A DNA stretch of 64,000 bases, from the sequence record NC_020079.1; one strand, given 5' to 3'. Shown here piece by piece: positions 48,457 to 60,789 of the stretch. The notes beneath the pieces are model-generated. The model ran no database searches. It saw nothing but the letters and a program-made list of their open reading frames with translations, and was not told the origin of the DNA. Origin of the DNA: Escherichia phage phAPEC8. A program made the translations under genes and the position numbers. The stretch's first letter is position 1; each line of letters begins with the position of its first letter.

Positions 48457-48929
48457 TGGCAGATTTAACTACGATCAAAATTTCTGATCTTACACAAACA
48501 ACCTCTGTGTCTGATACAGATTTCTTTGTAACAGATCAGGCTGGAATAACAAAGAAAACTTCTTTGAAAGTGCTGTTGAGTGGTGCAGGGGTAACTAGAA
48601 ACCGTTTAAATGCACGTGGAACAGTAACTAGCACCTTGGCATTAGATATTAGTTCAGCAGAATATTTTTCGGCAACTTTATCTTCTGCAACATGCACAAT
48701 TAGTTTTACTAATATTCCAGTAGCAACAAATGCAGTTTTAAACTTTACTTTAGCTTTGCGTCAAGGAAGTGGTGCAAATAAAGTTGTATGGCCTTCTTCT
48801 GTAAAATGGAGTTTTGGTCGTTCCCCAGTTTTGAGTTATCGTCAAGGTGCAACAGACACTTTTGAGTTTATCAGTTATGATAATGGTGCAACTTGGACAG
48901 GTAGCTTAGTTTTAGCAGGAGTTATTTAA
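48456..48929 (+). CDS. hypothetical baseplate or tail protein (157 aa)
   Basis: ORF track; start overlaps the previous stop. Confidence 0.3.
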   Translation: MADLTTIKISDLTQTTSVSDTDFFVTDQAGITKKTSLKVLLSGAGVTRNRLNARGTVTSTLALDISSAEYFSATLSSATCTISFTNIPVATNAVLNFTLALRQGSGANKVVWPSSVKWSFGRSPVLSYRQGATDTFEFISYDNGATWTGSLVLAGVI

Positions 48930-51805
48930 TGTCAAGAGTTAAGCACAATATTGACAACACGTTTCAGTTGATTGAAGGGTTGGTTCAGTTTTTGGAAAGA
49001 AATACTGGGCTTACCATAGATCCTACGGTTCAGCATTACATTATCAACCCACAAAACGTATTGGCGAACAACAGACACTTTATTAACTGGACAGCGCAGG
49101 AAGGGCAACCAAACGGTGACGCTACTACCGAAGGTCAATCTGTGCTTATCACTGGTTTTGCCTATGCATATTTGGCTACAGGGGATAAAAAATATCTTGA
49201 ATCTGCCGAGAAGTATTGGCAAGCCTATATAGATCACTTCTTCGGGGGCCAACCTATTCCTGATCCTCCGGCTAAATATCGTCCCAACTGGATCATCAAT
49301 GGTAAAGAACCACGTTTAGCACATTACCCTCTCACAGATGATGGGTATCCTACGCACGGTGGGTTCAAAGGTAGCATGATGACTTGGATTAACGGAAGGA
49401 CTGTTATTCCTAAAGGTGCACCGCATTGGGGGGAATACTTAGATAAAGCTTGGTTTGCTTTCAATGGCAATCTTGGTTGGAACTCCGTTAACGCAACAGT
49501 TTATGCAACTAACCCAGATGGTTCAACCAACTGGAAAGAATATGGAGATCAGTGGGACGTTGAATGGATTATAGACCGTCTAGGACGTAAAGTTGATTGG
49601 GATGGTAACATTTTATCTACTGGTCATAGCTTTGCAGAATATGGAACAGTACAACTTAAAAATGCTTCTGTGAACGGGGACTATAAATTCAACTACGCTA
49701 CATGCAATCCTGTAGAACACGGTGGATATCTGCTTAAGCGTAATGAGATGTGGCATAACCGTCCTGTAAACGTTCCGGTAGAGTTAGGCTATCAAGATAA
49801 TGCTTCCGATGCTGAAACGTGGTGGTGTGATGCAAACTACTTGATGTATCAGATCACAGGAGAGAGAAAATACTGGCTTTGCTGGCAATCTTCTTTATTG
49901 TTGTGTCAAGACTACTCAAACATCGATATGTTTGATAAATTCTTCCGTAGATCTACGACAGCAATAATTCCTTTTACAGATGGTATCTCGTATGATTACT
50001 CATACCCATCTACAGCAATACCTAAATATTCTCGTGACGAATTAGGATACACAGTAATTCGCCAAGATGTTTCAGCACAAACAACTCTAGAACAACAGGC
50101 AGTTTGGTTCAGAGTAGATCAGAATTCAAAACTGCGTATTGAGTTTCAAGGTGTAGATGATGCAGGGGAAGGTGTTCTTTTCCGTCCAGAGCTAGAATTA
50201 AGCAAAACTAAGAGTGAAACAGACACAGTGACATATCGTTGTGGCTTACCTCTTGGTGCAGCTAATATGACTAAGATGGATATACCTTTATCTAGTTTTA
50301 TGCGCACCGAACCTCCTGGAGGTGGTGTATATATTATTGCTGAACCTAGAATTATTGTTGACTGGGGAAGCAATACTGTGATACAATATAAATATGCAAC
50401 TGGTATTGCTGGGACAAATAGTGATCAGATAGTTTCTGCTAATATGGATTCAGATGGTGGTTTTACTGTTGGGTTTTGGTTAACACCAACTAAAACAGCC
50501 AATTTAAAATCTATTACGTATCGTTCATACGCAGATGATTTTAACATCACTATTACGGATTCCGCAGGTTGGAGATGGTGGGCCATGTTAGAAAAAACAA
50601 ATTCTGCATGGGTTACTAAAGCTTTAAGTCCTGCTGATTTCAAATTAAGCACTTGGCAACCCAATCATAACGACACAGAGACAAAACCTTCGTCAATAAA
50701 CCTGACTGCTGTTGATCAGATCAACATTGCATTGGATTCTGAACCTGCAAATGGCTTGACAGGGGCAATCGATTTTTATTGTGTTAACGATATCCCATCT
50801 TTGTATTCTTCAGCCGCTGGTGATGATTACACAATGTATTTCAGGGTTACAGTTTCATCTGAAAATCCTTATACAGCAAAACTTGGAGATTGTACAATAC
50901 TGGACTATAAACTTGACAGTTTGAATTATACTCCAGGAATCATTCCATTTTCCAATATTAGTGATCCTAACACAGCATTATATGACGGTTGGCGTGGTAT
51001 TCCTTACCCAGGTTATCAATACCCATCCTTATATTGTTTTAAAGGGAGAGATATTGACTGGGTTCGTATGAACAACAGTATAGACTTTTTATATGATTCA
51101 CAAATGTGGTTTTATAATAAGTTTGCCCCTGTGATGCCTGGGCCAATGGCACAAGCTTATGTTTGGGATCGTTGGGATGCTCATAAATACGGAAACAAGA
51201 ATGAGTTCACAATGTATCATTGGAACGATAAAGCTTGGGATGGTTATGAAGCACGAGCATTCTTCTGTGCGTGTCATACAGTATACGAACTGAAGCAACG
51301 AGGAGCAGAAGTTCCTGAAAAACTTTTAACAGTTTGTAAAAACTGGATCAATTATCTGAAGTGGTTCCAGGATAACAACGAAGGAAGAACACCAACAATA
51401 TTTTATCCCAACGGAGAAGTGGCTGCGCCTGTAGATGACTTTACAAGTCACATGTCTGCGCTCTTTATGGCGGGATGTGCTATAATGGGGATGGCTGGAT
51501 ATGATTCAGAAATTCCTAACATTAAAATAGTAGCAGATCGCTGTTTTGAACTTATTCAGGAAAATTATATTGTTCTTGGTCCTAATCACGTTATGAATGG
51601 TTGTTGGAGTGCTGCTCCTAGACCAGACAGTGATAACGGAGTCTTCTTTGGCTTCCACGCCGGAGAGTTGTTACGTGGTTTTGGGTTGTATGCCTTATAC
51701 AAAAAACTTAATCCCCAAAATGCATTACCTGTTTTGGATTCGAGCAATATTCCTGCACTTACTGTTTTGACAATGGCAAACATTAGTGTGGACGTTACCG
51801 AGTAA
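48929..51805 (+). CDS. large Trp-rich tail-associated protein, possible glycan-degrading enzyme (958 aa)
   Basis: ORF track; many Trp/Tyr/Asp residues reminiscent of glycoside hydrolases; no motif firmly recognised. Confidence 0.3.
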   Translation: MSRVKHNIDNTFQLIEGLVQFLERNTGLTIDPTVQHYIINPQNVLANNRHFINWTAQEGQPNGDATTEGQSVLITGFAYAYLATGDKKYLESAEKYWQAYIDHFFGGQPIPDPPAKYRPNWIINGKEPRLAHYPLTDDGYPTHGGFKGSMMTWINGRTVIPKGAPHWGEYLDKAWFAFNGNLGWNSVNATVYATNPDGSTNWKEYGDQWDVEWIIDRLGRKVDWDGNILSTGHSFAEYGTVQLKNASVNGDYKFNYATCNPVEHGGYLLKRNEMWHNRPVNVPVELGYQDNASDAETWWCDANYLMYQITGERKYWLCWQSSLLLCQDYSNIDMFDKFFRRSTTAIIPFTDGISYDYSYPSTAIPKYSRDELGYTVIRQDVSAQTTLEQQAVWFRVDQNSKLRIEFQGVDDAGEGVLFRPELELSKTKSETDTVTYRCGLPLGAANMTKMDIPLSSFMRTEPPGGGVYIIAEPRIIVDWGSNTVIQYKYATGIAGTNSDQIVSANMDSDGGFTVGFWLTPTKTANLKSITYRSYADDFNITITDSAGWRWWAMLEKTNSAWVTKALSPADFKLSTWQPNHNDTETKPSSINLTAVDQINIALDSEPANGLTGAIDFYCVNDIPSLYSSAAGDDYTMYFRVTVSSENPYTAKLGDCTILDYKLDSLNYTPGIIPFSNISDPNTALYDGWRGIPYPGYQYPSLYCFKGRDIDWVRMNNSIDFLYDSQMWFYNKFAPVMPGPMAQAYVWDRWDAHKYGNKNEFTMYHWNDKAWDGYEARAFFCACHTVYELKQRGAEVPEKLLTVCKNWINYLKWFQDNNEGRTPTIFYPNGEVAAPVDDFTSHMSALFMAGCAIMGMAGYDSEIPNIKIVADRCFELIQENYIVLGPNHVMNGCWSAAPRPDSDNGVFFGFHAGELLRGFGLYALYKKLNPQNALPVLDSSNIPALTVLTMANISVDVTE

Positions 51806-51813
51806 GGGGTAAA

Positions 51814-53967
51814 ATGAAACAAGCTATATTTACTGTCACGCGAGACAAGAGAGTAAATGCGAGTTCATTTAACTACACGACTGTTGATGGAACAGCAGTC
51901 GCTGGTAGAGATTATATTGCAAAATCGGGAACACTTGTGTTCCCTGATGATGCTGATTCTGCTACCATTGTGGTTGAAGTATTTGAACGACCAAAGAACT
52001 CAATAGATCTTAACTTCTCCCTCCAAGTTTCAGGGATTAGTCAAAATAATATGATGGTTGAAACAACCATCAATTGTATTATAACTACTATCCAAGAAAA
52101 TACTACTCCAATAACTTGGACTACAAAAGACGTTAAAATGTTCTCTCCTATGTATTGGACAATAGATTCTCAAGCAACGGAAAGTTGTTCTATTGTATCT
52201 CATGGAGACTCTTTTACTGCAAGATTTGTAAACAGAACAACAGCAGGTTTGGCAGGGGTTATCTGGAGCACAGTTGACAAATATGACCATAAAGGTGTTG
52301 GGTATTTACCCCACACAGATTTAAGTTCAGAGAAACTTTGGTTTAAAATGGAAATTAGTCAAAACATGCCAGGTTTTAAAGAAGAACCTTTGGTGCCGAC
52401 TTTGACTGTAACTCTCCTGGATAAAAGTGTTCATTATGTCAGTTTAGGATTCTACGCTTCAGATATTTCAGAAGATGGTAAAACAGCTACAATCAAGTTA
52501 GATTTTGGTAATATCTTTTCTGGCCCTAATAATGATATTCCTTTGGATATGAGTGCTGTAGATAATATTTTCTTCTCTTTGATTACAGCAAGGTATGAAG
52601 AAATAGAAGAGGTTGTACCTATTGACAGTCAAGAGGCTTGGTTTACTTTCACTCTTCTTGAACCTACTTCTGGTTACAGTATGATGAAAGTCAGCAACCT
52701 TGTCCAGCCTGAACATGATATTCGCATGTGCACATCTTATGATGATATGTATAACCTGACTCCAGAGAGAGTTATTTATAATACATATGCACTAGGTTAT
52801 CGTGGGATGATTAACCATTATAACGGAATGTCTCACTATTATGAGTTCTCATGGAATGGAACATCTTGGGCTTTAAATAAATCTGTTTTCCTGAATCCGG
52901 CTACAGAAGCTTGGCTTAACAGCTTTCATTCTATAGCAAACGAGAAGGGCTACACAATAATGAACTCTTTAAGTTTTGAATTGATGAGCACAGTTTGTCC
53001 TGTAGAATGGGTCCAGCATGATTGGAACGATGCTCTTGCAGCAACAGGGTATAAACCTCCTAGTTATGTGTTGTCTCCAACTATTGACGAAGGTATGGAA
53101 TATTTGCAAAATGTTATTAATAAAATAGCATCTATTTCTCAAGCTAACAATATTCCAGTCGTCATTCAAATTGGTGAACCTTGGTGGTGGTATAATACAG
53201 CAAGTAAAATGCCTTGCATATATGATTACACTACCAAACTGGCATTCAACACAGAAACAGGTTTATTTGCACAAGATGCAGGAACAATAGATAATTATAA
53301 AACAGGAACGCCGTTTGACGAATACTATGCATTTTTGTCTCGTAAACTAGGATTAAGAGTTACAAAGTTTGCAACAGATCCCAGAGCAACTTACCCAGGA
53401 GCCAAGGTAACATTGCTTCCGTTCTTGCCATCAATTATCGGCAACGGTTTGATGGAGAAAGTTAACTTTCCGTCTGATTACTACATTCCTGAAACTTTTG
53501 ATTTTTACTGTTCAGAGTGTTACGACTGGCTTCTGGAAGGTAAAATGATGAAAGCATTCGATGCAATTACCATACCACATGAAAAATTAGGTTTTGAATA
53601 TTCTGATATTCACTATCTTTCGGGTTTTGTTCCAGATGCTACTCTTGCACCTTTGTATGGCTTCGATCCTGAATCAAACTACCGAACGTATCTTTGGAAA
53701 ATGATTATAGGCAATATAGTATTGAACGCCAACAAGTTTGACGGACTTACACAATATATATGGGCCTATCCTCAAATAATGCACGATTCCATCACGGTAG
53801 TTAATTCTCAATCTCAAGTTTTCTATATGGGTAACGTGCCTTTGAACGTTTATTTACAGGATATCACTCTTAAACAGGTAAATGTTGAGATTGCCACCAT
53901 AAGTGGAATTACATTAGCCACTAAATCTGGAGAAGATTTGGTAACAACACAAAAATTTTATATATAG
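51814..53967 (+). CDS. tail-associated protein with N-terminal Calx-beta-like domain (717 aa)
   Basis: TVDGTAVAGRDYIAKSGTLVFPDDADSATIVVEV matches the Calx-beta consensus pattern. Confidence 0.4.
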   Translation: MKQAIFTVTRDKRVNASSFNYTTVDGTAVAGRDYIAKSGTLVFPDDADSATIVVEVFERPKNSIDLNFSLQVSGISQNNMMVETTINCIITTIQENTTPITWTTKDVKMFSPMYWTIDSQATESCSIVSHGDSFTARFVNRTTAGLAGVIWSTVDKYDHKGVGYLPHTDLSSEKLWFKMEISQNMPGFKEEPLVPTLTVTLLDKSVHYVSLGFYASDISEDGKTATIKLDFGNIFSGPNNDIPLDMSAVDNIFFSLITARYEEIEEVVPIDSQEAWFTFTLLEPTSGYSMMKVSNLVQPEHDIRMCTSYDDMYNLTPERVIYNTYALGYRGMINHYNGMSHYYEFSWNGTSWALNKSVFLNPATEAWLNSFHSIANEKGYTIMNSLSFELMSTVCPVEWVQHDWNDALAATGYKPPSYVLSPTIDEGMEYLQNVINKIASISQANNIPVVIQIGEPWWWYNTASKMPCIYDYTTKLAFNTETGLFAQDAGTIDNYKTGTPFDEYYAFLSRKLGLRVTKFATDPRATYPGAKVTLLPFLPSIIGNGLMEKVNFPSDYYIPETFDFYCSECYDWLLEGKMMKAFDAITIPHEKLGFEYSDIHYLSGFVPDATLAPLYGFDPESNYRTYLWKMIIGNIVLNANKFDGLTQYIWAYPQIMHDSITVVNSQSQVFYMGNVPLNVYLQDITLKQVNVEIATISGITLATKSGEDLVTTQKFYI

Positions 53968-53975
53968 GAGTAAAA

Positions 53976-56741
53976 ATGTCAACTACAATTACTAATTTAC
54001 CCGAAACATCAAAAGTTAATGGTTCTGATTACCTGGTTTTAGATCAACCTGATAAGACTGTTAAAAGCACAGTTTCCAACTTTCTTACTGACACTGGGGT
54101 GGTTTTAGCCACCCAGCTAAAAGATACTTCTGGAGCTACCAAGTATCCAGAACTTCAAATGTCACGTTGGAGAGATGAAGGTGATCCTAGAGGATGGGGA
54201 GCAGTAGGTGACGGAGCAACAGACGATACTAATGCCATAACACAGCTTCTTGCTGCTATGCCTGATGGATGGATTGTTGATGGGCGTAATCTCACTTTCA
54301 AGGTTACAACACTACCAGATATAAGCAAGTTTAAAAACGCTGCTTTTGTTTACGAGCGTATTGTTGGACAACCCCTTACTTACGTATCTGAGGGTTTCTT
54401 TGATGGAAATCTGACAAAAATTACGGATACACCATTTTACAATGCTTGGACGCAAGATAAGACGTTTGTTTATGACAATGTTATATATGCACCATTTATG
54501 GCTGGCGAACGTCATGGTGTACAAAACCTCCATGTAGCGTGGGTTAAATCAGGAGATGATGGACAAACTTGGTCTATGCCAGAATGGTTAACTCCAATTC
54601 ATCCTGATTATAATGCCTCTTCAGCAAACAAAGTTAACTATCATTGTATGAGTATGGGTGTATGTGGTAATCGCTTATATGCGGTGATCGAAACCCGTTA
54701 CTTATCTAACATGCGATTGAAGAAAGCAGAACTTTGGTCACGTCCAATGCCTTATTATAGAAGGCCAACTGGAGGCATAACAATTAGTTCTGGGTCTACT
54801 ACAGCGACAATTGTTTTAGAAAAGCATGGTCTTAAAGTTGGAGATGCTGTTAACTTTTCCAATTCAGGTGCAACTGGCGTATCTGGAAATATGACTGTTG
54901 CATCTGTAATTAACAAGGATACATTTACTGTTACATTAGCGAGTGCTGCCACATCTAATATAGATAATACAGGAACTACTTGGCATTTTGGAACACGTTT
55001 CTGGGATAGCCCTTGGGAAATTACAGAATTACCAGATGTTGCCTATTCTACTAATGCAGATTTATGTGTTACAGAAACCCATAGTTTTACAGTTATAGAT
55101 GATGATAATTACACTTTTGCTGTTGGTTATCACAATGGTGATGTTTCCCCAAGAAGATTAGGTATTTTGTATTTCAATAATGCTTACTCTGACCCAAGTT
55201 CTTTTACTCGTAGAACAATTAGTCAAGAATATGCTGACAATGCAGCAGAACCCTGCATTAAATATTATGATGGAATTTTATATTTAACTACCAGGGGTAC
55301 TTCAACTTCTGCTGCTGGTTCTACATTAGCAATGAGTACCGACCTTGGAGAAAACTGGAACTACTTAAGATTCCCTAACAACGTTCATCATACAAACTTA
55401 CCATTTGCAAAAGTTGGTAACTACCTTTATATCTTTGGTACAGAACGTTCATTCGGAGAATGGGAAGGAGAAGAACTAGATAATAGATATAAAGGCACGT
55501 ATCCTCGAACGTTTATGTGCAAGATTAATGTATCTTCATGGCCTACATCTTTATCCGATGTTCAATGGTTTAATATCACTGATCAGATGTATCAAGGGCA
55601 TATTGTTAATTCTGCATGTGGTGTTGGTTCGGTATGTGTTAAAGATGGTTGGTTATATTATATCTTTGGAGGCGAAGATTTCTTATCTCCTTGGTCTATT
55701 GGGGATAATAGTAAAAAATTATGGTACAAGCATGATGGTCATCCAGCCGATTTATATAGTTATAGACTAAAGATTACCGAACATGATTTTGTATCACGTG
55801 ATTTCAAATATGGAGCTACGCCAAACCGTACATTGCCTGTATCTATGGGTACAGATGGGGTAAGGCATGTCTCAGCCCCTGTAACTTTTGATAATGATGT
55901 ACAAGTATACTCTTTAACAGTTACTGGCCTTGAGCATGATGGGACACAACAATCTGCCGTTAGAATAAAATTAGATGGTGATTATGGGGTTGTTGCAAAA
56001 AATGTCCCAATAAAAAATCCTTCTAAACAGCGACTAATCCTATGTGGAGGAGAAACTCCTTACGTTACTGATGGATCGCTATTACAACTATATGGTTCAA
56101 ACCATACGTATCCAAACAGAGCAGTTTTATATGCCCCAGGAGGAGCATATACCCAAAATAATTTCATGCCGTATTTAGATGGACAAGTTGCATTAGGCGG
56201 TGCGTCTAACAGATGGTCAGAAGTGTACGCATCTACAGGAACCATTAATACTTCAGATGGAACATTAAAAACTAAACCTACAGAGATTGAAGATATTTTA
56301 CTGAAAGCATGGGAAGATATTCATGTAATCTCTTACCAATGGCTTAGTGCTGTCGCGGAGAAAGGAGATTCTGCGCGTATTCATTTTGGTGTTATAGCTC
56401 AAGATGTAAGAGATATTCTGATTAATTATGGCTTAATGGATGAAAATAGCACTGATTGTAAGTATGCTTTTCTGTGTTATGATGAATACCCTGCTATGTA
56501 CGATAGTGTTGTTACGGGACAAAAAGAAATCCCTTTATTTGATGATGAAGGGAATGTTGTAATTGATGAAGAAGGTAATCCAGTAACAATCGTAGAAGAT
56601 GTTGTAGAAACTATCGAAATAATTCCAGCAGGATCGCGATGGGGTATCCGCGCTGACCAAATGTTTTTTATTGAGATGGCTTATCAACGTAAAAAGTTAA
56701 AAGCTCTTGAAGAAAGACTTGCAACCCTGGAAAGTAAATAA
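53976..56741 (+). CDS. sialidase-like (Asp-box) tailspike or fibre with C-terminal intramolecular chaperone domain
   Basis: Asp-box repeats SGDDGQTW and STDLGENW; last about 163 aa (from 56250: TSDGTLKTK...GVIAQDV...AYQRKKLKALEERLATLE) match the endosialidase / T5 pb1 chaperone domain. Confidence 0.6.
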   Translation: MSTTITNLPETSKVNGSDYLVLDQPDKTVKSTVSNFLTDTGVVLATQLKDTSGATKYPELQMSRWRDEGDPRGWGAVGDGATDDTNAITQLLAAMPDGWIVDGRNLTFKVTTLPDISKFKNAAFVYERIVGQPLTYVSEGFFDGNLTKITDTPFYNAWTQDKTFVYDNVIYAPFMAGERHGVQNLHVAWVKSGDDGQTWSMPEWLTPIHPDYNASSANKVNYHCMSMGVCGNRLYAVIETRYLSNMRLKKAELWSRPMPYYRRPTGGITISSGSTTATIVLEKHGLKVGDAVNFSNSGATGVSGNMTVASVINKDTFTVTLASAATSNIDNTGTTWHFGTRFWDSPWEITELPDVAYSTNADLCVTETHSFTVIDDDNYTFAVGYHNGDVSPRRLGILYFNNAYSDPSSFTRRTISQEYADNAAEPCIKYYDGILYLTTRGTSTSAAGSTLAMSTDLGENWNYLRFPNNVHHTNLPFAKVGNYLYIFGTERSFGEWEGEELDNRYKGTYPRTFMCKINVSSWPTSLSDVQWFNITDQMYQGHIVNSACGVGSVCVKDGWLYYIFGGEDFLSPWSIGDNSKKLWYKHDGHPADLYSYRLKITEHDFVSRDFKYGATPNRTLPVSMGTDGVRHVSAPVTFDNDVQVYSLTVTGLEHDGTQQSAVRIKLDGDYGVVAKNVPIKNPSKQRLILCGGETPYVTDGSLLQLYGSNHTYPNRAVLYAPGGAYTQNNFMPYLDGQVALGGASNRWSEVYASTGTINTSDGTLKTKPTEIEDILLKAWEDIHVISYQWLSAVAEKGDSARIHFGVIAQDVRDILINYGLMDENSTDCKYAFLCYDEYPAMYDSVVTGQKEIPLFDDEGNVVIDEEGNPVTIVEDVVETIEIIPAGSRWGIRADQMFFIEMAYQRKKLKALEERLATLESK

Positions 56742-56789: not shown

Positions 56790-57053
56790 ATGGCTAAAGA
56801 GAAAAATGGTTTTAAAAAATTTATTCGCGGAATGTTCTGCACTTACCCCGGCAACGGGGTAAGCTCTACGAAAGTCTGGAACGCTGTAGGCATGTCTGTT
56901 ATGACAGGCATGTTTATCTTTTTAGGAATAGAAAAAGAAATTCCTGAATGGATGGGCTGGGCTTTTGTTTTCATGATAACCCCTTCTCGCCTCATGAAAA
57001 ATCTTATTGATTTACGTTGGGGCAGATCACAATCTACCAAAGAGGATGACTAA
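56790..57053 (+). CDS. small two-segment membrane protein (87 aa), holin-like topology
   Basis: Two hydrophobic stretches and a charged C-terminus. Confidence 0.3.
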   Translation: MAKEKNGFKKFIRGMFCTYPGNGVSSTKVWNAVGMSVMTGMFIFLGIEKEIPEWMGWAFVFMITPSRLMKNLIDLRWGRSQSTKEDD

Positions 57054-58540
57054 TGGACGAATATGGTTTGACAGATGCGGGATTTGTAATCCCGACTTTT
57101 GACGATGTTTTAAACAACTACATGACAGCAGTAAAAAACACATTTGGTGCAGATGCAGCCACTTCGGAAGACACTGTGATCGGGCAACTGTTTAGAATAA
57201 TTGCATACACAGATTACACATTGTGGGAAGGTATGCAAGGTGTTTATAATACTCAAACACTGGATGGTGCAGAAGGTATTTATCTTGACGAAATCTTTTC
57301 TAAACGCGGTTTCTATCGAGCAGGGGCAGCAGCAAGTACAGGTTATGCATATGTTAAGAGCAATAACAAAGCAGCTTGGACTTATGAGCTAGGCACGGAT
57401 ATTTACTTCAACTCTGATAGTGATATGAACTACTATGTTAGCACACCAACTATGTTGAATGCTAAGATTGCAGCTTATCAAATCTCTTGTGCTAATGCAA
57501 CTGCTACAGGTGTTCCAAATATTACTTTTTATGCACAAAGTGCGGTAGATGGAGGACTAAACAGTAAAACACTTGCACCTGGTTCTTCTACATTTATAAC
57601 CGATCTTGAAACTTTTATCAAGGCAAATTTAACAGAAGCTGATCGTAGTCTTGTATTTTCTGATTCAGGTAACTTATCAATTGGTTTTACTTCTTTAACT
57701 AGTGATACTCCAGTGGGACTGGTAACTCCTATTAAATTTTATGCTAGTGTTCCGGTTGGAACCAAGTGGAGTGAGATTCCGGTAGTTGCAGCAGAGAAAG
57801 GATACAACCCTGTTGGCGTGGAGTCTATTACAGGGATATCTTCTACCTTTACAGGTTATCTTGACAGTGGTAACTTTTATTCATTTTCTCCTGGTCGGGA
57901 TGTTGAGACAGACGCAGAATTCCGCTCTCGTTTCAATGACAACGTTGATGAAGCTAACGCAGGGACACGAGCAGCTATTGTGAAAGCTCTGCTACTTACA
58001 GATGGTGTTACTAAGGTGAAGATTTATGATAACCCTACATTACATGATCAAGAACATGCTCCGGCTATGACTTTCCAGACTATAGTTTATGGAGGAAGTG
58101 CTGAAGAAGTTGCTGAAGTTATTTACAAAACTAAACCAATCAACAGTTTGACACATGGAACAACCAACATAACTGTTACAACGGAAGACGGAGGACAAGA
58201 AATTATTCGTTTTTCTCCTGGTGCTTCTGCTACGTATTCCGTAAAACTTGTTTATCAAACTGTCAACGGAACAACTTTAAGTGGAACAGAAAAACAAAAC
58301 ATTGTAGAAGCTTTACAAAACCTGCAAGCTTACTTTGAATTAGGTTCTTCAGTAACGAACGATCAAATCAAAGGTGTTATTTATGCAGCACTTGCTTTTG
58401 GACGCTTGACTTCTCTTCGTGTTTATGTTAAACTTAATACTGAGGATGACAGTAAATATACAGAGAATAATATAGTTCCTGCTTATAATGTTGTCCCTTC
58501 TTTTGACCTTGATAACATTTCTTACGAGTATGGAGTGTAA
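57053..58540 (+). CDS. putative baseplate wedge protein (J-like)
   Basis: 495 aa; position in the baseplate and fibre module. Confidence 0.3.
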   Translation: MDEYGLTDAGFVIPTFDDVLNNYMTAVKNTFGADAATSEDTVIGQLFRIIAYTDYTLWEGMQGVYNTQTLDGAEGIYLDEIFSKRGFYRAGAAASTGYAYVKSNNKAAWTYELGTDIYFNSDSDMNYYVSTPTMLNAKIAAYQISCANATATGVPNITFYAQSAVDGGLNSKTLAPGSSTFITDLETFIKANLTEADRSLVFSDSGNLSIGFTSLTSDTPVGLVTPIKFYASVPVGTKWSEIPVVAAEKGYNPVGVESITGISSTFTGYLDSGNFYSFSPGRDVETDAEFRSRFNDNVDEANAGTRAAIVKALLLTDGVTKVKIYDNPTLHDQEHAPAMTFQTIVYGGSAEEVAEVIYKTKPINSLTHGTTNITVTTEDGGQEIIRFSPGASATYSVKLVYQTVNGTTLSGTEKQNIVEALQNLQAYFELGSSVTNDQIKGVIYAALAFGRLTSLRVYVKLNTEDDSKYTENNIVPAYNVVPSFDLDNISYEYGV

Positions 58541-58542
58541 AA

Positions 58543-59172
58543 ATGGCAGTGAGTGTTGACCATGTAACAACTTGGGCCAGTATCAATGAAGACGTTAAAA
58601 ACCTTCTGATTGAAGATTTTAAATCTTCTCCTAACATTGTCAAGCTCCTCTACATCGTATCCAGTGAAAAGCAAAAGATAGATCAGGCAATGATCTATCT
58701 TGCTAAACACCGCTTGATCTCCACAGCCACAGGCAAATACCTAGATATCTTAGGAGAAGAAATGGGGATCGAACGTAATGGCTCTGATGATGAAGAGTAT
58801 AGAACAATATTAAAAATCAGGGCTTACCGCGTAGCCTCATCGGGGACTCGTGGTGACATAATTGATATCTTCGCCCGTTTCACAGGAACAGAGCGTGAAA
58901 CGCTTAATACTTACGTAGGTTTGAATAAAACCTTTGATGTGTTTTTCTACAACCTGTGTCTTCAATCTGATCAAGCTTTAGAGCAGTTGCTAAGTGTTTT
59001 CCCTATTATTAGTAGCTACCGTCTTGGAGCAAAAGCAGGATCAGCTTTTGGTTTTAGTTCTTATTATGCTACCAAACCGCCTCATGGTATTGGTGGTTTA
59101 GGTTCCCTGTACATGGAATCTACTGGGGATGAAACAGGACGCATGTGTACGCTTCTCAAGCAAATAGATTAA
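58543..59172 (+). CDS. putative baseplate protein (209 aa)
   Basis: ORF track; gene order. Confidence 0.3.
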   Translation: MAVSVDHVTTWASINEDVKNLLIEDFKSSPNIVKLLYIVSSEKQKIDQAMIYLAKHRLISTATGKYLDILGEEMGIERNGSDDEEYRTILKIRAYRVASSGTRGDIIDIFARFTGTERETLNTYVGLNKTFDVFFYNLCLQSDQALEQLLSVFPIISSYRLGAKAGSAFGFSSYYATKPPHGIGGLGSLYMESTGDETGRMCTLLKQID

Positions 59173-59181
59173 GGAGTTTAA

Positions 59182-60243
59182 ATGGCGAAGCCAATATATT
59201 ATCCTGACTGGGCTACACAAACTGTAACGCTCCCAGGAACTTTAAACACAAACAAAATTAGACCTAAAGAAACCATCCGCACAATTGGTATGGATTATGG
59301 TCAAATCATGACTTGCGAAGAGATGAACTGGATTCTTAATAATATCGGTTTATGGATTCGCTATTTGGTGGATGATTTTCTTCCAACTTTACCTAATACC
59401 TACTTGCCTTTAGTGGGAACTAAGATTACAATGGCAGGTGATGCTACTGGTGAGGCCACTTGGAACGGTAACAAAGAAGTTACTTTATCTATCCAAGTTC
59501 AAGATAACAGTCATAATCACTTGTCAGCAAACATTACAGATGCTACTAGTTCAACAGTAACACCAAACGTGTTGGTAAAACGTGATGCGGGTGGTGCTAT
59601 TTATGGTGGCGATGTTTATGTTAACGGTACTTCCACAACAGATCCTGCAACACTGTTCTTCAAAAACTTTGCAGGACAAACAAATGGTGAGATTTCTGCC
59701 GAGTATCAAAGCGGAGGTCAGCTTTACATCTATCGTAGAAATCCTAGCACAGGTAGTGTATCGGCAGGTGTTCGTTTATATGATGCAGGTTATGTTCTAA
59801 TAGATAATCCAAGATCGAACAGTGGACAAGATACTTCTAACGGAAATGCTTTAGTTCGTTTAGATTATCTGAACTCTCGTTTGACTTCCCTTCAGAACAC
59901 ATTGCAGACGAATATTAACACTGTTCAAAACAACTTGAATAATGTTAACAACAACCTCTCTTCTCGTATAAACAATGTAGAAAGTAATCATCAAAGTCAG
60001 ATTACAAATAACTACAACTATGCTAACGGAACCTTTGTAAGAGATATTCGTTATACTAGCCAAGGTGTGTATTATCCACCAGGGAACGAGGTTTCTTGGA
60101 CTTATATCTGTTCTTCTGGTTATGTTCTTTCTGGTATTATCGTACAGGAAACAGGACGTAGCTCTGCGGATAACATCGGTGGGGTTTACTTCAAACGCCT
60201 CCAGCGCAACGTTAACGGAAACTGGTACGATATTGGAGGCTAA
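59182..60243 (+). CDS. putative tail fibre protein
   Basis: 353 aa; Asn/Gln-rich heptad-like segment NTLQTNINTVQNNLNNVNNNLSSRINNVESN. Confidence 0.4.
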   Translation: MAKPIYYPDWATQTVTLPGTLNTNKIRPKETIRTIGMDYGQIMTCEEMNWILNNIGLWIRYLVDDFLPTLPNTYLPLVGTKITMAGDATGEATWNGNKEVTLSIQVQDNSHNHLSANITDATSSTVTPNVLVKRDAGGAIYGGDVYVNGTSTTDPATLFFKNFAGQTNGEISAEYQSGGQLYIYRRNPSTGSVSAGVRLYDAGYVLIDNPRSNSGQDTSNGNALVRLDYLNSRLTSLQNTLQTNINTVQNNLNNVNNNLSSRINNVESNHQSQITNNYNYANGTFVRDIRYTSQGVYYPPGNEVSWTYICSSGYVLSGIIVQETGRSSADNIGGVYFKRLQRNVNGNWYDIGG

Positions 60244-60789
60244 ATGATATTTACAAACTTTAAAAAATATATTCCTGAAGACCCTGAACTAAAAGAATTG
60301 GTAGAAGCAGAGAACATTCTTTTTCTTCGTTGCGATCAAGGTTACGACTGGTATGATTTACGTAGCACAGAATTCAATAACGATAAAATGAAAGTCGTTT
60401 TTGATGATCAAAATCGTATTGTGTTTTGGAATACTGATCCTACACTACTTTGCCCTGAAGATCTTTCTATAGCACAAGTAGATTTTAATATAGATACTTT
60501 TGAGGATATTAGGAACAAGGTTCTGGATTTAGAAACCTTAACTCTTAAGGATAAAGAGTATTCCCGTGAAGAGTTGATGACACAAGCTAGTGCAAAAATT
60601 CGCTCTTTACAAGAAACAGCGGTAGCACTTATAACACCTTTACAGTATGCTAAAGATTTAGAAATGGCTACTGAAGACGAATTAGCTTATCTTAAAAATC
60701 TTCAAGTTTATGTAGTTAAACTAAATCGTGTTCCGCTTCAAAAAGACTATCCTTACGCTATAGATTGGCCTACATTACCGACAGAATAA
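60244..60789 (+). CDS. putative tail fibre assembly protein
   Basis: 181 aa gene directly after the fibre gene (ATGA overlap). Confidence 0.3.
   Translation: MIFTNFKKYIPEDPELKELVEAENILFLRCDQGYDWYDLRSTEFNNDKMKVVFDDQNRIVFWNTDPTLLCPEDLSIAQVDFNIDTFEDIRNKVLDLETLTLKDKEYSREELMTQASAKIRSLQETAVALITPLQYAKDLEMATEDELAYLKNLQVYVVKLNRVPLQKDYPYAIDWPTLPTE

Follow-up and report, generated by a model that had tools for sequence, protein, structure and literature searches.

A homologous ‘glycan deacetylase’ fibre is shared by Vequintavirinae, phi92-like phages and N4, all of which need wecB and nfrB, i.e., the NGR glycan (PMC8594841, PMC8669472); for Vequintavirinae and phi92-like phages, the literature describes infection as requiring nfrA, nfrB and wecB. 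The fibre protein of phi92, Gp142, has been named the NGR receptor-binding protein, and an invariant GMSHY motif has been identified in it (bioRxiv 10.64898/2026.04.02.716166). Here we consider its ortholog in Escherichia phage phAPEC8, a 717-residue protein encoded within the 64,000 nucleotides of record NC_020079.1 that we analysed (the window, to which all unlabelled coordinates refer). The Calx-beta domain at the N-terminus of this protein lacks the first strand of its fold, and we propose that the missing strand may be supplied by the C-terminal tail of the protein encoded directly upstream.

The window comes from a Phapecoctavirus, a myophage of ~150 kb in the phi92/rV5 group, whose fibre region is 97-98.5% identical to those of PNJ1809-36 and ESCO5 and 82% identical to that of phi92. 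The open reading frame of the 717-residue protein (51814-53967, plus strand, ATG start) stands as originally described; its product is 76% identical to phi92 gp142, and the gene order is the same, with a gp141-like gene (48929-51805) before it and a gp143-like endosialidase gene (53976-56741) after it. Nothing of substance separates the protein from phi92 gp142 (Justusliebigvirus) and the rV5 gp034-type lateral tail fibre, with which it shares a three-domain architecture and GMSHY; phi92 gp142, flanked by the same gp141 and gp143 neighbours, was itself published as an NGR-targeting ‘glycan deacetylase’ fibre. Behind the Calx-beta domain lie, on the plus strand, an NCTSP_N domain (residues 107-292, positions 52132-52689; PF23844, 59.7 bits against a cutoff of 27), which phmmer also relates to N4 gp65, and a TIM-barrel_NCTSP domain (residues 299-658, positions 52708-53787; PF23845, 263.7 bits against a cutoff of 27, E 3e-78; Foldseek agrees), presumed to be a glycan-binding or glycan-processing module. 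The barrel contains the published NGR-specificity signature (plus strand, 52825-52839), and its residues G338-M339-S340-H341-Y342 are invariant in two homolog alignments. The identity of the gene as a gp142-type NGR receptor-binding protein is correct, yet already known; recognition of the NGR surface glycan by the phAPEC8 protein itself would follow from this orthology.

Both NCTSP-family domains, which Pfam names after the non-contractile tail sheath protein, score above threshold, and the full-length AlphaFold2 model (predicted local distance difference test, pLDDT, 85; predicted template-modelling score 0.85) has N4 gp64 (E 2e-18) and N4 gp65 (E 2e-15) as its best Foldseek matches, followed by PgaB. 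The N4 proteins (gp65/gp64; PDB 9lc0, 9yf4/5) have the NCTSP_N and TIM-barrel domains and the NGR receptor in common with the 717-residue protein. However, N4 gp65 is a protein of 1382 residues and 10 domains that is anchored through its C-terminus and forms, as a heterodimer with gp64, a six-fold sheath on a podovirus tail, whereas the phAPEC8 protein belongs to a myovirus and unites gp65-like N-terminal and gp64-like barrel similarity in a single chain. No separate gp64-like gene was seen adjoining the 717-residue gene, nor was a Calx-beta N-terminus detected in N4 gp65. The ~150-kb phAPEC8 genome carries sheath initiator and Baseplate_J genes, as befits a myovirus, and does not offer a podovirus tail for such a sheath to surround. 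The family name, which some GenBank records apply to the gene as ‘non-contractile tail sheath’ (others have ‘Calx-beta domain protein’), describes N4 and not the role of this protein. A second label calls for similar caution. The barrel is termed a ‘poly-GlcNAc deacetylase’, in GenBank as well as in papers, because the annotation derives from PgaB; since the likeness is to the C-terminal, glycoside-hydrolase-like half of PgaB (a GH153-type barrel; 4p7q, template-modelling score, TM, 0.59, E 4e-6) and not to its N-terminal CE4 deacetylase domain, ‘deacetylase’ is probably a misnomer.

The original prediction placed a Calx-beta domain at the N-terminus, and two of the checks it proposed, a profile search and a structure prediction, bear this out; it had named these two as able to refute it, and neither does. 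The peptide on which it relied, TVDGTAVAGRDYIAKSGTLVFPDDADSATIVVEV, corresponds to residues 23-56. Residues 4-82 match PF03160 at 42.5 bits (gathering cutoff 27, E 7.7e-11), the N-terminus scored alone reaches 47.0 bits (E 3e-12), and the scores in four other lineages are between 31.8 and 47.5 bits. In a phmmer search of PDB sequences, the Ca2+-binding domains of NCX and CALX are recovered at E values of ~1e-4 to 1e-7. The domain is modelled by AlphaFold2 with a pLDDT of ~90-94, and its 32 best Foldseek matches in the PDB are all Calx-beta domains (Ca2+-binding domains 1 and 2, CBD1 and CBD2, of CALX/NCX1, and integrin beta4), with E values down to 1.3e-9, TM 0.74-0.81 (normalised to the target) and root-mean-square deviations of 2.4-3.1 Å. 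Along with the fold, the domain shares the TA-x-AG-x-DY motif with these proteins, and the match is far beyond chance.

That such domains are seldom annotated in phage tail proteins, as had also been claimed, is true only in part. One GenBank record names exactly this gene ‘Calx-beta domain protein’, tail proteins of Klebsiella, Serratia and Erwinia phages carry the annotation ‘CalX-like domain protein’, and a viral structure library yields 18 matches at E <= 1e-3. A profile search of representative proteins with the N-domain gave 65,863 matches, the best 150 of which are giant multi-repeat bacterial adhesins only. A Calx-beta domain on a phage fibre, already present in precomputed Pfam annotations and some GenBank records, is ordinary by itself.

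What is less ordinary is that the domain (51814-52089, plus strand; delimited from Pfam, the full-length AlphaFold2 model and Foldseek) is incomplete. The first position of the PF03160 profile to be matched is 24 of 119, aligned with protein residue 4, and hence the first strand or strands of the canonical domain are absent from the 717-residue polypeptide. In agreement with this, the N-domain of the full-length model has six strands (residues 3-9, 17-25, 38-43, 49-56, 66-73 and 85-90) rather than the seven of a complete domain. The same truncation is kept in all nine Calx-bearing homologs, down to 48% identity, with a common start M-x-x-A-x-F-T-V-x-R. An earlier start codon would have no room: the gp141-like gene is in another frame, and between its TAA stop and the ATG the sequence shows a spacer of 8 nt that includes a Shine-Dalgarno-like AAGGGG (stop and spacer, 51803-51813, plus strand). 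The N-domain is thus a fold from which one edge strand is absent, as is expected of the acceptor in a donor-strand joint.

The upstream gene (48929-51805, plus strand) encodes a gp141-like protein of 958 residues, the proposed carrier of the donor strand; it is syntenic with phi92 gp141 and falls in PHROG 2871 (‘tail protein’), with no match in Pfam, PDB sequences or NCBIfam. Its last 32 codons (residues 927-958, LNPQNALPVLDSSNIPALTVLTMANISVDVTE; 51707-51802, plus strand) encode a C-terminal tail made up of a flexible linker and then the proposed donor strands A/A' (residues 945-957, TVLTM..ISVD.T; 51761-51799, plus strand), which are delimited from AlphaFold2 strands and a gapless alignment to strand A. 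We compared the C-termini of upstream proteins in 16 loci from four clades and found that, on unrelated carriers, they end alike (...ISVDVTE, ...ISIDVTAEG, ...ISVDATE or ...VSVLDTTVNFS). For phi92-like phages and Phapecoctavirus, the carrier is the gp141-like protein of ~958 residues, with the tail ...PALTVLTMANISVDVTE; for rV5-like phages and Avunavirus, it is an unrelated protein of ~228 residues, with tails ...TTIYCDSISIDVTAEG, ...ILIYVDNISVDATE and ...LVKVSVLDTTVNFS.

The upstream proteins of the rV5-like phages (225-229 residues) are homologs of a protein that is encoded elsewhere in the window, the gp146-like DUF2612 baseplate-wedge protein of 209 residues (58543-59172, plus strand; Pfam DUF2612, BLASTP E 1e-22 to 4e-28). 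In the window this protein does not adjoin the Calx gene and has no donor tail, whereas its rV5-like homologs do adjoin it and have one. Conversely, the rV5-like gp141 homolog does not adjoin the Calx gene, and it aligns to residues 3-926 only, without the last 32; in PVP-SE1-like and Pseudomonas phages, too, gp141 homologs end without the tail. Since both carriers are tail-less when they do not adjoin the Calx gene, the tail tracks adjacency and not the identity of the carrier. Without its tail, the gp141-like protein spans window positions 48929-51706; its C-terminal body occurs in 470 phage records of many genera, where it is annotated as a tail protein, hydrolase or glycosidase, and among these records the tail is found only in the two genera in which the Calx gene comes next. 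An apparent partial tail in PVP-SE1-like gp141 (a tblastn match extending to query position 78) was rejected, as the alignment had continued past the stop codon and into the following gene. Relative to phi92, 21 of 31 codons in the tail differ, and the 15 synonymous to 6 non-synonymous changes (compared with 24:27 in the N-domain and 36:16 in the gp141 body) indicate that it is under purifying selection.

If the tail were the missing strand, it should resemble the strand A of complete Calx-beta domains. We built a dedicated profile from the 104 complete bacterial Calx-beta repeats closest to the N-domain, with their own strand A included. Joining the true tails raised the scores against this profile by 1.2-6.5 bits and moved the start of the match from position 24-26 to position 4-19. 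Composition-preserving shuffles equalled or exceeded the true score in 0, 4, 7, 1, 44, 11, 7 and 1 of 200 cases in the eight lineages, and Fisher's combined test over the four clades gave p = 4e-4. For the window tail, none of 200 shuffles reached the true score, and it ranks first among 55 natural C-termini in the window, none of the 54 others attaining its score. At the junction, LTMANISVDVTE|MKQAIFTVTR aligns without gaps to the consensus lslsisnasvte|ggtltftVtr, such that the gene boundary falls exactly in the A'-B loop. In these shuffle and decoy comparisons, as in the adjacency pattern, the upstream partner has what a strand donor requires, i.e., an extension that matches the missing strand.

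A structural model points in the same direction. We submitted to AlphaFold2 a construct in which the 36-residue tail, a 20-residue glycine-serine (GS) linker and the N-domain form one fused chain, with a paired alignment of only 10 sequences. In the model of this fused chain, and subject to the shallow alignment, the tail forms strands at residues 23-27 and 30-33 (block mean pLDDT 93), the GS linker has a pLDDT below 50, and the N-domain is at 91-97. We judged docking from the TM-scores of Foldseek alignments and the stretches that they cover. With one set of CBD1 targets, the model without the tail gave a TM (normalised to the target) of 0.69-0.72 over 93-97 columns, and the model with the tail a higher TM of 0.78-0.81 over 129-137 columns; the with-tail alignments start in the tail and span the linker. 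AlphaFold2 therefore appears to place the fused tail at the position of strand A.

Incomplete immunoglobulin-like sandwiches that are completed by a strand from another polypeptide are known from chaperone-usher pili and TasA fibres, in which they form very stable non-covalent joints. The mechanism that we propose for phAPEC8 follows the same principle. The 717-residue protein would be a monomeric receptor-binding protein whose NCTSP_N and TIM-barrel domains recognise NGR, and its Calx-beta N-domain, a six-stranded sandwich without strand A/A', would serve as the virion-anchoring module. The last ~14 residues of the upstream gp141-like protein, tethered by a flexible linker of ~18 residues, would supply strand A/A' in trans; this would be a case of donor-strand complementation across a gene boundary, with the stop codon, ribosome-binding site and start codon all falling within the A'-B loop. 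At the opposite end of the 717-residue protein, the C-terminal 34 residues would belong to the downstream tailspike cassette and recruit the endosialidase, resulting in a chain gp141 -> gp142 -> endosialidase. Pilins differ from this arrangement in that they lack the C-terminal G strand, receive the N-terminal extension of the next subunit and pass through a chaperone intermediate; in the phage, the missing element is the N-terminal A/A', and the donor would be the C-terminal extension of a different protein, in a heterotypic joint specified by adjacent genes, for which we know of no chaperone. The searchable literature contains no paper connecting Calx-beta domains, donor strands and phi92/rV5-type fibres, and that on phi92 gp142 and rV5 fibres is silent on the Calx-beta domain, on its truncation and on the upstream tail. 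We regard it as reasonably probable that, in the phAPEC8 lineage, strand donation in trans anchors the gp142-like protein on the gp141-like fibre, physical insertion of the strand being what would hold the NGR-binding protein in place. It had been suggested that the domain might attach the protein to the baseplate: attachment to the virion is indeed the function that fits the evidence best, but the gp141-like fibre, and not the baseplate itself, is the most likely partner.

A possible alternative, and the main idea of the original prediction, is that the Calx-beta domain binds Ca2+ and mediates Ca2+-dependent adhesion to the host. The fold is that of the Ca2+-binding CBD1 and CBD2, and many phages require divalent cations for adsorption. 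The canonical ligands are absent from alignments of the N-domain to CBD1 of NCX1 and CALX. The acidic cluster of NCX1 CBD1, which we take to consist of E385, D421, D446, D447, E451, E454 and D498-500, is not preserved: in both alignments the CBD1 segment I-D-D-D-x-F-E-E-D-E-x-F faces F-E-R-P-K-N-S-I-D-L-N-F. The position of D447 is R59, basic (R/H/K) in nine of nine homologs; that of E451 is S63, with S or T among the homologs; that of E454 is L66, hydrophobic among them; and that of D446 is E58, which is not conserved among the nine. Only D421 is retained (as D33), and it is part of the generic AG-x-DY Calx motif. Because the ligand positions are replaced, canonical Ca2+ binding by the N-domain is unlikely, and, judged from these alignments, it is very unlikely that the domain is a Ca2+ site. 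Moreover, Calx-beta domains of the integrin beta4 type, which to our knowledge do not bind Ca2+, match the structure equally well; the N-terminus is the end by which phage receptor-binding proteins are usually attached to the virion; and the receptor-binding determinant GMSHY sits in the TIM barrel. We consider Ca2+-dependent adhesion very improbable. It is also improbable, if somewhat less so, that the N-domain is an accessory sandwich resembling a carbohydrate-binding module (CBM) and raising avidity towards NGR or a different glycan. Next to glycoside-hydrolase-like TIM barrels, beta-sandwich modules are common, and the distant Foldseek matches (ranks 39-45) include glycosidase sandwich domains, but these are weak (E > 1e-3) next to the Calx-beta matches. 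Homologs of the receptor-binding module in Acinetobacter and elsewhere lack the domain entirely, and a CBM-like function would leave the adjacency-linked tail unexplained.

The alternative that deserves most attention is that the six-stranded Calx-beta domain is a self-sufficient anchor or spacer with an ordinary binding surface, and that the upstream tail is a hitch-hiking remnant of an ancestral gene fission or serves its carrier in some other way. Several points weigh against strand donation, and three of them (the model without the tail, the decoy control of the generic profile and the phages without a donor signal) also favour this alternative. The N-domain is modelled confidently (pLDDT ~90) without the tail and may be stable alone. 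With the generic Pfam Calx-beta model, adding the upstream tail extended the match in five lineages, with gains of 0.9-4.0 bits, but one of nine unrelated decoy tails outscored the true tail, and we have discarded these gains as evidence because the control failed to discriminate. In the shuffles against the dedicated profile, one clade (L003) is not significant alone (44 of 200); in the fused model, a tethered hairpin might settle on any open edge of the sandwich; and maps of Vequintavirinae fibres are available at 7-9 Å only. In addition, the truncated module occurs in Erwinia, Klebsiella and Serratia phages whose upstream proteins give no coherent sign of a donor (117-176 of 300 shuffles equal or exceed the true score, Hena1 and Pavtok being exceptions at 7 and 25 of 300); for these phages, either the donors lie elsewhere in the genome or the six-stranded form stands alone. 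A self-sufficient anchor does not, however, account for a tail that is under purifying selection, that resembles strand A in the correct register, that is kept on two unrelated carriers strictly by adjacency, and that AlphaFold2 puts at the strand-A position, and we regard this alternative as unlikely, although it should be taken seriously. A different way to complete the domain would be in cis, if the gp141-like and gp142-like proteins were joined by programmed readthrough or frameshifting. The junction lies exactly in the loop, with zero residues lost, and the two reading frames coincide in three clades; but the offset is 0, +1 or +2 depending on lineage, one lineage has tandem stops (TGA TAG), the open stretch 51787-51802 contains no slippery heptamer, and a Shine-Dalgarno-like sequence precedes the ATG in every lineage. 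The variable frames, tandem stops and Shine-Dalgarno-like sequences make a conserved translational fusion unlikely; the first two led us to reject a programmed event, and we give fusion in cis almost no credence. Strand donation in trans is the explanation that we retain.

The truncated Calx module is not confined to gp142-type proteins. Tail proteins of Erwinia (Schitoviridae, Henunavirus, Pavtokvirus), Klebsiella (Lastavirus) and Serratia (Parlo) phages begin with a strand-A-less Calx module, which is a recurrent N-terminal adaptor in phage tail proteins. These proteins (L067, L072-L076) have 770-970 residues, start with M-x-R-x-A-x-F-T-V-T-L-S and continue into differing bodies (glycoside hydrolase, sialidase and others). 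Upstream of the Calx-like genes in Klebsiella, Serratia and Erwinia phages are homologous small proteins of 86-91 residues with a conserved C-terminal ...VGYTVP and a gap of 52-69 nt (L072 3170-3433, L073 3182-3442, L074 3150-3425). A 117-residue protein consisting of a strand-A-less Calx domain only is encoded, behind an intrinsic-terminator-like hairpin, in Erwinia phage pEp_SNUABM_01 (gp073; L066 4986-5339) and in Henunavirus Hena1 (L075 5963-6316). It ends in ...VISISDAVLTTV, which has a weak likeness to a donor strand (14 of 300 shuffles); possible readings of this protein are a circular permutation and an adaptor link.

Among homologs of the receptor-binding part, the N-terminal module is swapped: Calx-beta occurs only in large myophages, Acinetobacter prophages have nothing in its place, and in another clade DUF2460 stands there instead, a pattern that speaks for an anchoring role of this module. 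The Acinetobacter prophage homologs (P0010-P0072) are proteins of 623 residues with NCTSP_N and the TIM barrel that NCBI records commonly call ‘phage capsid protein’, and they are probably misannotated tail receptor-binding proteins. In another clade (P0077-P0094; L016-L065), DUF2460 (TIGR02217), a tail-tip family found in elements like gene transfer agents, is fused N-terminally to NCTSP_N and the TIM barrel, which implies that the receptor-binding part combines with different anchoring modules.

A second junction, at the 3' end of the gene, may be built in a similar way. The last 34 residues of the protein (684-717; 53863-53964, plus strand) form an extension that we consider a candidate for a second docking tail on account of its co-occurrence with the downstream tailspike, low pLDDT and a jump in nucleotide identity. 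The extension is poorly ordered in the model (pLDDT 24-40 for residues 694-717), and homologs of 687-691 residues lack it. It is present in all five loci in which the downstream tailspike bears the N-terminus MSTTITNLPETSKVN and in none of the 11 loci without such a tailspike. In the window, the downstream gene (53976-56741, plus strand) encodes the phi92 gp143-like endosialidase tailspike (Pfam End_beta_propel and related families, E 4e-213), with MSTTITNLPETSKVN as its conserved N-terminal adaptor (53976-54110); tailspikes with this N-terminus have variable bodies of 558-921 residues. Over 48929-53866, nucleotide identity to phi92 is 67-83%; from 53867 until the endosialidase gene ends, it is 93-99%. 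This jump, at the start of the extension, indicates that the final ~34 codons of the upstream gene are physically part of the exchanged tailspike cassette. On this evidence the extension would dock the endosialidase and so recruit it to the fibre, with the caveat that a PVP-SE1-like tailspike with a similar N-terminal motif directly follows a tail-less gp141.

Conserved N-terminal modules with exchangeable bodies, and chains of several receptor-binding proteins on a single virion, are familiar from the branched tailspike adaptors of CBA120 and G7C and the adaptors of SP6 and K1-5; a Tail_spike_N domain was also seen in the present analysis. In the known systems each partner has a complete adaptor domain, whereas the cassette described here seems to bring along a short peptide, fused in frame to the 3' end of the gene before it. 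More tentatively, the two junctions could be instances of one rule, by which receptor-binding cassettes of rV5/phi92-like phages carry their own docking peptide, with the 5' edge of the cassette inside the preceding gene and the tail grafted onto whichever structural protein is encoded there. In the better supported of the two, the tail would be strand A of a split Calx-beta domain and complete in trans the N-terminal domain of the incoming protein, and gp141 -> gp142 -> tailspike would be a portable plug-and-socket daisy chain.

The phAPEC8 fibre block (gp140-gp144) sits between the sheath initiator and the Baseplate_J/DUF2612 wedge module, and in rV5-like phages the Calx gene is placed after the DUF2612 gene. 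Window positions 57053-60789 have a P2/Mu-like order, i.e., a Baseplate_J-like protein (495 residues), the DUF2612 protein (209), a fibre (353) and a Caudo_TAP chaperone (181). GC skew turns from negative (1-26000) to positive (26000-64000) near position ~26000, consistent with a divergent switch of the coding strand there.

These analyses correct two labels, in that a Ca2+ site in the N-domain is very unlikely and the ‘deacetylase’ name given to the barrel goes back to the part of PgaB that resembles a glycoside hydrolase. Thanks to their broad host range, phi92-like and Phapecoctavirus phages have found use in therapy cocktails; if the proposed mechanism is true, ~14-32 carrier residues and a cargo socket of ~95 residues would make a minimal transferable tag for engineers. 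A domain split over adjacent genes, with a donor strand that accompanies the acceptor gene when genomes are rearranged, would then furnish a testable rule for how receptor-binding proteins of multivalent phages are attached and exchanged, and would account for recombination breakpoints that lie within fibre genes, close to their 3' ends. Portable docking peptides of this kind would explain how such ‘Swiss-army-knife’ phages shuffle fibres between attachment points.

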